Positions 12,407-12,500 of a stretch of 64,000 bases of DNA are shown here, in pieces. Position 1 is the stretch's first letter. Every line of letters begins with the position of its first letter. This DNA is from Candidatus Spongiihabitans sp. (GTDB lineage Bacteria; Pseudomonadota; Gammaproteobacteria; Arenicellales; Poriferihabitantaceae), in the NCBI GenBank assembly GCA_965261425.1, contig OZ253452.1, forward strand, positions 2,275,892-2,339,891, given 5' to 3'. Under the pieces are notes generated by a model. That model worked only from the letters and a program-made list of their open reading frames with translations. It was not told where the DNA came from and made no database searches. The translations under genes were made by a program, and so were the position numbers.

Positions 12407-12434
12407 TGCTCACGGTGATGTGGGCGCGACGCAA

Positions 12435-12500
12435 GTGCGACGAAATTTAGCGAAATCTAAAAAAGAAATTAAAAACTTGGAACGCTCAAGATTGGCTTAA
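12435..12500 (+). pseudogene. Diverged 3' fragment of a lapA-like gene
   Basis: It encodes ..VRRNLAKSKKEIKNLERSRLA*, compared with the resident LapA C-terminus ..KVRRNLSKAKKELKVLKSPRLVI* (30800-30877). The nucleotide similarity is obvious but imperfect. Confidence 0.45.

Follow-up and report, generated by a model that had tools for sequence, protein, structure and literature searches.

The window, by which the whole analysed stretch of 64,000 nucleotides is meant, contains the canonical gammaproteobacterial gene run gyrA-pheA-tyrA-aroA-cmk (5456-12229). The genes rpsA, ihfB and lapA follow at 28557-30877, with glnS directly after lapA. In the Candidatus Spongiihabitans locus L006 the order gyrA-pheA-tyrA-aroA-cmk-rpsA-ihfB-lapA-lapB is unbroken, and the JGI locus L014 possesses the canonical cmk-rpsA-ihfB-lapA; both represent the empty site. 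Since L006 and L014 are uninterrupted there, the approximately 15.6-15.7 kb between cmk and rpsA in the window are an insertion. The scan of JGI metagenomes with the LapA alignment recovered three loci (L013, L014 and L015), none of them (0/3) with the cargo described below; L013 holds only a partial rpsA with ihfB and lapA, and L015, a contig of 1.3 kb, nothing but a lapA match at 28%. The nearest LapA proteins are 75-80% identical, and the named ones among them belong to Candidatus Spongiihabitans, a sponge symbiont. A scan of GTDB genomes with Cmk found relatives only at 47% and 38%, so no close reference genome is at hand. Exact-protein look-ups of RpsA, LapA, Cmk, GlnS and the ABC ATPase recorded no sister strain with an empty site; with IMPase and AroA, the sole matches were contigs of low coverage from this same organism. 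The gene downstream of lapA varies within the clade (glnS in the window, lapB in L006, others in L007).

The host genes and the two edges of the insertion comprise the following features:

11564-12229, plus strand: resident cmk, the complete left-hand copy (TIGR00017 cmk, 236.7 bits, cut-off 135.6; gyrA-pheA-tyrA-aroA-cmk synteny as in L006)
12012-12405, plus strand: left copy of an exact repeat, consisting of cmk nucleotides 449-666 and 176 nt of cmk-rpsA spacer
12406-12432, plus strand: junction segment of 27 nt linking repeat and lapA tail, which is filler or what is left of a diverged rpsA leader
12433-12500, plus strand: lapA-type 3' end relic (..QVRRNLAKSKKEIKNLERSRLA*), 28 nt after the left repeat, identical at 39/57 nt to the resident gene, 39/57 to L006 and 44/57 to L007
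27896-27974, unstranded: spacer of 79 nt, the right edge of the foreign DNA (homology to L004 ends at 27895)
27975-28003, plus strand: cmk nucleotides 10-38, the left end of the right-hand, 5'-truncated cmk copy (29/29 identical to resident 11573-11601)
28005-28122, minus strand: truncated end of an ISNCY-family IS, with the terminus ..GGGCTAACA at 28122 and the first 15 transposase codons, 96% identical to L005:1609-1726 and replacing cmk nucleotides 39-448
28122-28515, plus strand: right copy of the exact repeat upstream of rpsA, consisting of the cmk 3' remnant and spacer
28557-30877, plus strand: resident rpsA (28557-30242), ihfB (30258-30611) and lapA (30614-30877; LapA_dom, E 5e-13)

The exact direct repeat of 394 bp (12012-12405 = 28122-28515) brackets the island and reaches 401 bp if two mismatches are allowed (seven more bases, left copy to 12412). 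Its non-coding portion of 176 nt is likewise identical in both copies. Gene conversion could also maintain such perfect identity. The left cmk is intact; the right cmk is devoid of its 5' end and start signals, begins at nucleotide 10, and is composed of nucleotides 10-38, the IS stub, and nucleotide 449 to the stop codon followed by the spacer. An alignment of 27975-28012 with 11573-11610 yields 36/38 identical positions, of which the genuine cmk portion is 27975-28003; the two mismatches (28004 and 28009) are not cmk divergence, because they lie at or beyond the junction with the ISNCY fragment. Over the same 29 nucleotides of cmk, L006 and L002 each differ from the resident gene at 6/29 positions. 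The cmk 5' relic that a sequence-only reading of this DNA had placed at 27975-28008 is therefore real, but it is cmk only as far as 28003 and of resident type throughout that part, the rest being IS. The separate start context ascribed to it does differ from the resident one, but as a non-homologous junction: comparison of 27896-27974 with the aroA-cmk spacer gave no similarity, with a score below the shuffle mean. Judged by this comparison, the sequence upstream of 27975 marks a breakpoint at cmk nucleotide 10 and not a diverged start context.

The middle of the right cmk had been regarded as a deletion within a second, foreign copy; the place is taken by the truncated ISNCY element. Its counterpart L005:1609-1726 consists of the terminus (..GGACTAACA) and, encoded on the other strand, the opening codons (MTEEIITLSKTELDR..) of a transposase gene; the ORF of that gene scores 243 bits on NF033594 ISNCY_2, slightly under the 250-bit cut-off. 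The same terminus is also present at 18388-18455 and 48758-48782, but a partner at 12406 is missing. The cmk fragment and the IS stub meet at a TCGG microhomology. The IS sets the present limit of the exact repeat, which is why the repeat starts right at the IS terminus. In the simplest reading the original duplication comprised about 833 bp (11573-12405), from cmk nucleotide 10 to a point 41 nt before the ATG of rpsA, a reconstruction that presupposes that the 29-nt and 394-bp pieces were formerly contiguous. That the island (12406-27974) is bracketed by duplicated resident DNA, with both cmk copies derived from the resident gene, is the best explanation of these identities, and we give it about an even chance of being correct.

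The left edge has a different character. A tblastn search of the whole window with resident LapA gave one match other than the gene itself (amino acids 61-85 against 12420-12494, 52% identity, E 1.6e-4 to 4.9e-4). At the nucleotide level 33/41 positions match, and the local score is 42, about 11 sd above the mean of shuffled sequences (16.4, sd 2.3, max 26). A profile of 16 LapA homologues, run against 2370 six-frame fragments of the window, matched only the resident gene and the relic, which is covered by profile positions 65-85 (E 2.7e-4). The relic is in frame, has its stop codon at the equivalent place and represents the C-terminal basic segment of LapA (PF06305); its peptide QVRRNLAKSKKEIKNLERSRLA* is nearer to the clade consensus KVRRNLSKAKKELKNLxSS than the resident C-terminus is. 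The transmembrane N-terminal two thirds of the LapA domain are absent, the sequence upstream of 12433 being repeat and spacer, and a Pfam search of 12318-12500 gave no match. The lapA-like 3' end noticed in the sequence-only reading is thus confirmed as real and non-random (window-wide E ~1e-4 to 3e-4), and so is its divergence from the resident gene (39/57 nt identical, five synonymous codon differences).

That divergence of 18/57 nt (32%) is comparable to the one between lapA genes of different genera: over the same nucleotides the three full lapA genes (resident, L006 and L007) are mutually identical at 37-48/57 positions. Five of the 12 codons in which relic and resident gene differ are synonymous. 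Because of the degree of identity and the synonymous differences, the divergence is that of an orthologue, and neither that of a recent resident copy nor chance. By its substitution pattern, the relic diverged as a functional lapA orthologue in another lineage of the same clade. Under the best model, which we hold with middling confidence, the lapA tail came in together with the foreign cargo and is the sole foreign one of the two scars.

An artefact, either a mis-assembled repeat structure or a chance lapA match in lysine-/arginine-rich sequence, is hardly credible here. The match is indeed short (21-25 amino acids), and the left junction (12405|12406) is present in one assembly only. The match nevertheless reaches a window-wide E of ~1e-4 by two methods and lies near the clade consensus, and the right junction recurs in another sample, where the low-coverage contig L001 contains IMPase, cmk fragment, IS stub, cmk 3' end and rpsA at 99.9% identity. 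A further contig, L012, runs from gyrA into cmk and halts about 13 nt inside the repeat, as assemblers do at repeats.

The same lapA tail bears on an older tandem duplication of cmk-rpsA-ihfB-lapA-cargo within the genome, followed by deletions, in which gene conversion would have preserved the identity of the cmk repeats. Tandem duplication with reciprocal loss yields the observed gene order, and the region downstream of lapA is variable in the clade. We nevertheless regard this origin as very unlikely: a tail that is off at 18/57 positions, rich in synonymous changes and with frame and stop codon intact, is unlike a decayed recent duplicate; the non-coding 176 nt of the repeat are perfectly identical as well; resident lapA precedes glnS and not the cargo; and there is a hint that the relic is closer to L007 (44/57) than to the resident gene (39/57). 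A simple tandem duplication was rejected on the divergence of the lapA tail.

Two short segments join the scars to their surroundings. The 25 nt after the exact repeat (12406-12430) match the rpsA leader (28516-28539) at 16/23 positions, a similarity with p ~0.01 in an anchored extension test and p 0.04-0.07 when unanchored; comparison of the junction segment with the rpsA leaders of relatives gave no significant match. A search of the window and of all fetched loci for the origin of the 27-nt and 79-nt segments found none, and the island ends possess neither inverted repeats nor any likeness to IS1634-type elements.

Between these edges lies a mosaic of about 15.6 kb, riddled with IS and carrying genes for the use of phosphatidylinositol and inositol:

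12591-12792, plus strand: 5' part of a PI-PLC-like / ricin-lectin gene, with signal peptide and the start of the catalytic domain, the first cargo gene after the lapA tail
12793-18455, unstranded: nested insertion of 5.66 kb splitting the PI-PLC gene, with an iolC fragment, amino-acid ABC transporter, TIM-barrel enzyme and dehydrogenase
18477-19795, plus strand: 3' part of the PI-PLC-like / ricin-lectin gene (Pfam PI-PLC-C1, Ricin_B_lectin)
19832-21718, plus strand: IS1634-family insertion sequence (NF033559, 360 bits, cut-off 100) with 17-bp terminal inverted repeats
21840-27895, unstranded: sugar ABC transporter (inositol-type), LacI regulator, ATPase and inositol monophosphatase (Pfam)

With 12793-18476 removed, 12591-12792 and 18477-19795 join in frame into a protein of 506 amino acids, for which full-length homologues with 57% identity exist. 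The 5.66-kb insert is flanked by a direct repeat of 21-24 bp (12769-12792 = 18453-18476), and at its end two ISNCY termini form a palindrome of 68 nt (18388-18455); the ends of the insert, tested as transposon termini, lack terminal inverted repeats. The IS1634-family element possesses a target duplication of 69 bp (19763-19831 = 21718-21786), as is usual for its family. The region 21840-27156 is 96.7% identical to L004/L005, which come from another sample; beyond it, the match continues in shorter pieces as far as 27895. In L004/L005 the module belongs to a cluster for iol catabolism that has IS elements around it and is distant from both cmk and lapA. The housekeeping genes of the window are at most 80% identical to any nearest relative; the 96.7% identity of the inositol module to one in a different context implies that it moved horizontally and recently. 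A Pfam search of all long ORFs of the island returned transporters, enzymes, LacI and one DDE transposase, and no integrase (tyrosine or serine recombinase).

For members of the IS1634 family direct repeats of 8-514 bp have been reported (PMC2266710), and the repeat around the island might accordingly be read as a very long target-site duplication left by transposition of the whole island, e.g. by an IS1634-family transposase. Such an element with its 69-bp duplication is present inside the island, a second nested insertion has its own 21-24-bp duplication, an ISNCY terminus abuts the right repeat copy, and the present 394 bp fall within the reported range. The reconstructed 833 bp exceed it, however; the island ends carry no terminal inverted repeats and no IS1634-type similarity, the ISNCY terminus is unpaired at 12406, and the 29-nt piece of cmk to the left of the IS stub is left unexplained. 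Transposition of the island is, on this evidence, quite improbable. More doubtful still is a single cause behind all three nested insertions (with flanking repeats that measure 21-24 bp, 69 bp and, for the island, 394 bp today and about 833 bp at first), namely widely staggered target cleavage or repair of the IS1634 type that inserts DNA without IS ends. If true, this IS-rich symbiont would have in such long-duplication insertion a general way of capturing genes, and the locus would provide a natural system for the unexplained origin of variable-length target duplications.

Searches for a donor recovered the PI-PLC homologues (57%) in L008, beside the same kind of transporter/LacI/IMPase cluster, and in L009-L010, beside a LacI gene. 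The cargo adjoins neither lapA nor cmk in any of the cargo loci L004, L005 and L008-L011 or the lapA loci L006, L007, L013 and L014. The sequence-only reading had proposed to look for genomes in which a lapA homologue is followed by this cargo; none of the loci found has this arrangement, a result that is not decisive, as the cargo homologues searched share 57% identity (PI-PLC) or sit in another cluster and are not the immediate donor. That the homologues of the PI-PLC gene do not stand beside lapA counts against a donor with the cargo behind lapA. Among the plasmids searched with the PI-PLC gene and the inositol module, none showed cmk, rpsA or lapA in the neighbourhood; the module matches best (69%) a transporter cluster on a Paracoccus megaplasmid.

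Both scars had originally been attributed to one second cmk..lapA copy: a circle with diverged cmk*-rpsA*-ihfB*-lapA*-cargo was thought to have integrated, in the manner of Campbell, at the resident cmk 3' region, with subsequent deletions. The topology speaks for a capture of the Campbell type, since the left cmk is complete, the right one is 5'-truncated and the insert is bracketed by repeats, and the lapA tail on the left and the cmk 5' piece on the right stand in the circularly permuted order that such a circle would give. A deleted rpsA*-ihfB*-lapA* block is weakly compatible with the leader-like similarity at 12406-12430 (anchored p ~0.01). The diverged circle requires, however, a donor-type stretch in one of the copies, and is contradicted by the identity of 394/394 and 29/29 positions. 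With a lapA tail diverged by 32% and relatives off at 6/29 positions of the same cmk piece, the chance of 29/29 at a per-site identity of ~79% is ~0.001. Furthermore, the start context is a non-homologous junction, the gap in cmk holds an IS stub, and the plasmid search found no plasmid or circle with such a context. RecA-type crossover is very inefficient at 20-30% divergence. Since the cmk pieces match the resident gene throughout and the lapA tail departs from resident lapA by 32%, the two scars do not derive from the same diverged copy, barring gene conversion; only a later conversion of both cmk pieces would rescue the diverged circle, which we therefore consider unlikely.

We favour a duplicative insertion of foreign DNA from a related symbiont, a reading that in our estimate is evenly poised between right and wrong. 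We infer its mechanism and the order of events from the topology of the structures and identities described above; neither donor nor intermediate was found. The foreign mosaic 12406-27974 (~15.6 kb) would have entered the rpsA leader 41 nt before the start codon, and the same event would have duplicated about 833 bp of host sequence, from cmk nucleotide 10 to the point of insertion. By one route, a fragment may have bridged staggered positions on sister chromosomes, with one end at or near the rpsA leader and the other joined illegitimately at cmk nucleotide 10. By another, a circle that had acquired the 833-bp resident stretch may have integrated by a single homologous crossover. Afterwards an ISNCY-family IS would have landed in the useless right cmk copy, and a deletion across the TCGG microhomology would then have taken cmk nucleotides 39-448 together with most of the IS, leaving 29 nt, the 118-nt IS stub and 394 nt. 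The lapA tail would be a scar of the donor chromosome, presumably of a related sponge-symbiont lineage in which the cargo lay downstream of lapA. At the left edge, either the fragment ended in lapA or a redundant donor block rpsA*-ihfB*-lapA* was deleted later.

A promoter-like site, TTGAGA-17-TAGTAT preceded by a TG, lies in the duplicated 3' end of cmk (12029-12057 in the left copy, 28139-28167 in the right copy, where it begins 17 nt into the repeat). It matches the consensus at 9/12 positions, and sites of this quality are no more numerous than expected by chance. L007 has lost the linkage of cmk and rpsA, yet its rpsA is preceded by a decayed cmk 3' pseudogene (from about amino acid 123 to 220, with indels), the best-conserved block of which (25/30) takes in the -10 hexamer of the promoter-like site together with the nucleotides that directly follow it. 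A cmk breakpoint common to the window and L007 was rejected, as the L007 remnant begins further upstream (~aa 123) and is decayed, which implies an independent break. Promoters internal to the cmk-rpsA-ihfB operon have been reported in E. coli (PMC12083536). The cmk 3' remnant before rpsA in L007, kept there independently, points to functional constraint, the object of which is probably an rpsA promoter. From this we infer that the duplication would let cmk retain its end and rpsA its upstream signals. The left repeat copy, in turn, sets the promoter-like region and part of the rpsA leader before the PI-PLC gene and, to judge from this placement, may once have driven the cargo.

The locus records a horizontal gene capture in an ordinary but easily legible form; events of this kind are known, and nothing about it is conceptually new. 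Its interest lies in showing how the essential and highly expressed cmk-rpsA-ihfB-lapA cluster can take up an accessory island that is not lethal to the cell: with the junction duplicated, cmk retains its 3' end and rpsA the upstream region inside cmk. The scars document gene flow between co-resident sponge symbionts, and the perfect 394-bp repeats predict loss of the island at a measurable frequency.

A duplicated 3' end of the target gene is also known from prophages and from genomic islands with an integrase. The island resembles them in its position at the 3' end of a conserved gene, restored by the duplicated segment, but it carries no integrase or excisionase, its repeat measures hundreds of bp instead of tens, and its content is a patchwork of metabolic genes and IS. 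It shares long flanking direct repeats of the target with IS1634/IS1549 insertions (8-514 bp; PMC2266710), a member of which, with a 69-bp repeat, lies inside it. Unlike in those insertions, its borders are without IS ends and the reconstructed repeat is longer than any reported. Homology-facilitated illegitimate recombination classically replaces or deletes recipient DNA. The island has in common with it the DNA of a related lineage, a junction without homology (27974|27975) and possibly, on weak similarity, another junction in the homologous rpsA leader; it differs in having duplicated 833 bp of the recipient, for which two staggered joins are needed, e.g. on sister chromosomes. Campbell-like insertion-duplication is known for non-replicating plasmids and for circularised fragments in Bacillus, Streptococcus and others. 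Compared with those, the present case is a natural event in which no circle was observed, it combines homology of resident type with a foreign mosaic cargo, and one repeat copy of the island was later damaged by an IS and a deletion. As in insertion-duplication, the island is flanked by a direct duplication and encodes no recombinase, the left gene is complete and the right one 5'-truncated because the duplication extends over the 3' end of the gene and stops short of its 5' end, and the perfect repeats permit precise loss by homologous recombination.

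The inositol ABC transporter/LacI module of the island (21840-27156) has 96.7% identity to the module found inside an iol cluster on a contig from another sample, L004 (window 21840-27895 compared with L004:6804-12297), whereas none of the core genes has a relative above about 80%. The inositol monophosphatase gene is represented in L004 and in L005, a second contig of that sample, by only two remnants of about 80 nt.

Insertions within the cargo include:

12793-18455: 5.66-kb insert, splitting the PI-PLC/ricin-lectin gene
19763-21786: IS1634-family insertion sequence with target duplication (550-aa transposase, 17-bp inverted repeats)

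The 5.66-kb insert carries an iolC fragment, an amino-acid ABC transporter, a TIM-barrel enzyme and a dehydrogenase. It is flanked by a direct repeat of 21-24 bp (12769-12792 and 18453-18476), its ends, on examination, are without terminal inverted repeats, and its removal restores the PI-PLC/ricin-lectin reading frame. The left end (12793-12819) matches the motif TTTCCAATATGAAATGAGTCTGA, of which three copies occur in an intergenic region of the relative L007 (L007:14558-14665); this motif could be the terminus of a further repeat element, or else a regulatory site. The stretch that separates the iolC fragment from the ABC ATPase gene holds three copies of the short tandem repeat CTCTTTCTTACA (13200-13245).

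The target duplication of the IS1634-family element is 69 bp long and takes in the PI-PLC stop codon. The element's 17-bp left inverted repeat also occurs alone, at 55827-55843, within a left-end stretch (55824-56303) that is 78% similar to the element and lies upstream of a gene for an IS5-family transposase (56561-58231).

Two forms of an ISNCY-family insertion sequence terminus, ..AAGTCAAAAGGGGACATTACTGCTTTGGGCTAACA, are present: solo ends, and a 68-nt perfect palindrome consisting of a pair of ends, the latter a MITE-like mini-element. Terminus sites are as follows:

18388-18455; 28053-28122; 48739-48782: window
L004:2655-2703; L005:1609-1805; L005:2596-2644: contigs of the other sample

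Short tandem repeat tracts of the AATTGAGAATTGAAA type (48560-48740), in inverted orientation on either side of the hairpin GTCATTCCTGCGAAAGCAGGAAC, immediately precede a solo ISNCY terminus; 57 nt of this repeat region (48655-48711) have 95% identity to L004 and L005.

At the right edge of the island, a minus-strand ORF of 85 aa (27813-28070) is a chimera of 15 ISNCY transposase codons, the antisense cmk fragment and the antisense 3' end of the inositol monophosphatase gene. It is almost certainly not a real gene, although its counterpart in L001, a low-coverage contig of another sample, was annotated by a gene caller.

In the 2.36-Mb relative L007, cmk and rpsA are unlinked. A decayed cmk 3' pseudogene with indels (about aa 123-220; L007:7200-7560) is still located upstream of rpsA, and its best-conserved block (25/30) spans the -10 hexamer of the promoter-like site TTGAGA-17-TAGTAT along with the bases that immediately follow. 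Each genome examined (window, the Ca. Spongiihabitans locus L006, and L007) has a different gene downstream of lapA:

window 30878-30966: glnS
L006:10262-10386: lapB
L007:10265-10565: aminotransferase and IS1595

In this clade, rearrangement seems to have recurred at the lapA 3' flank.
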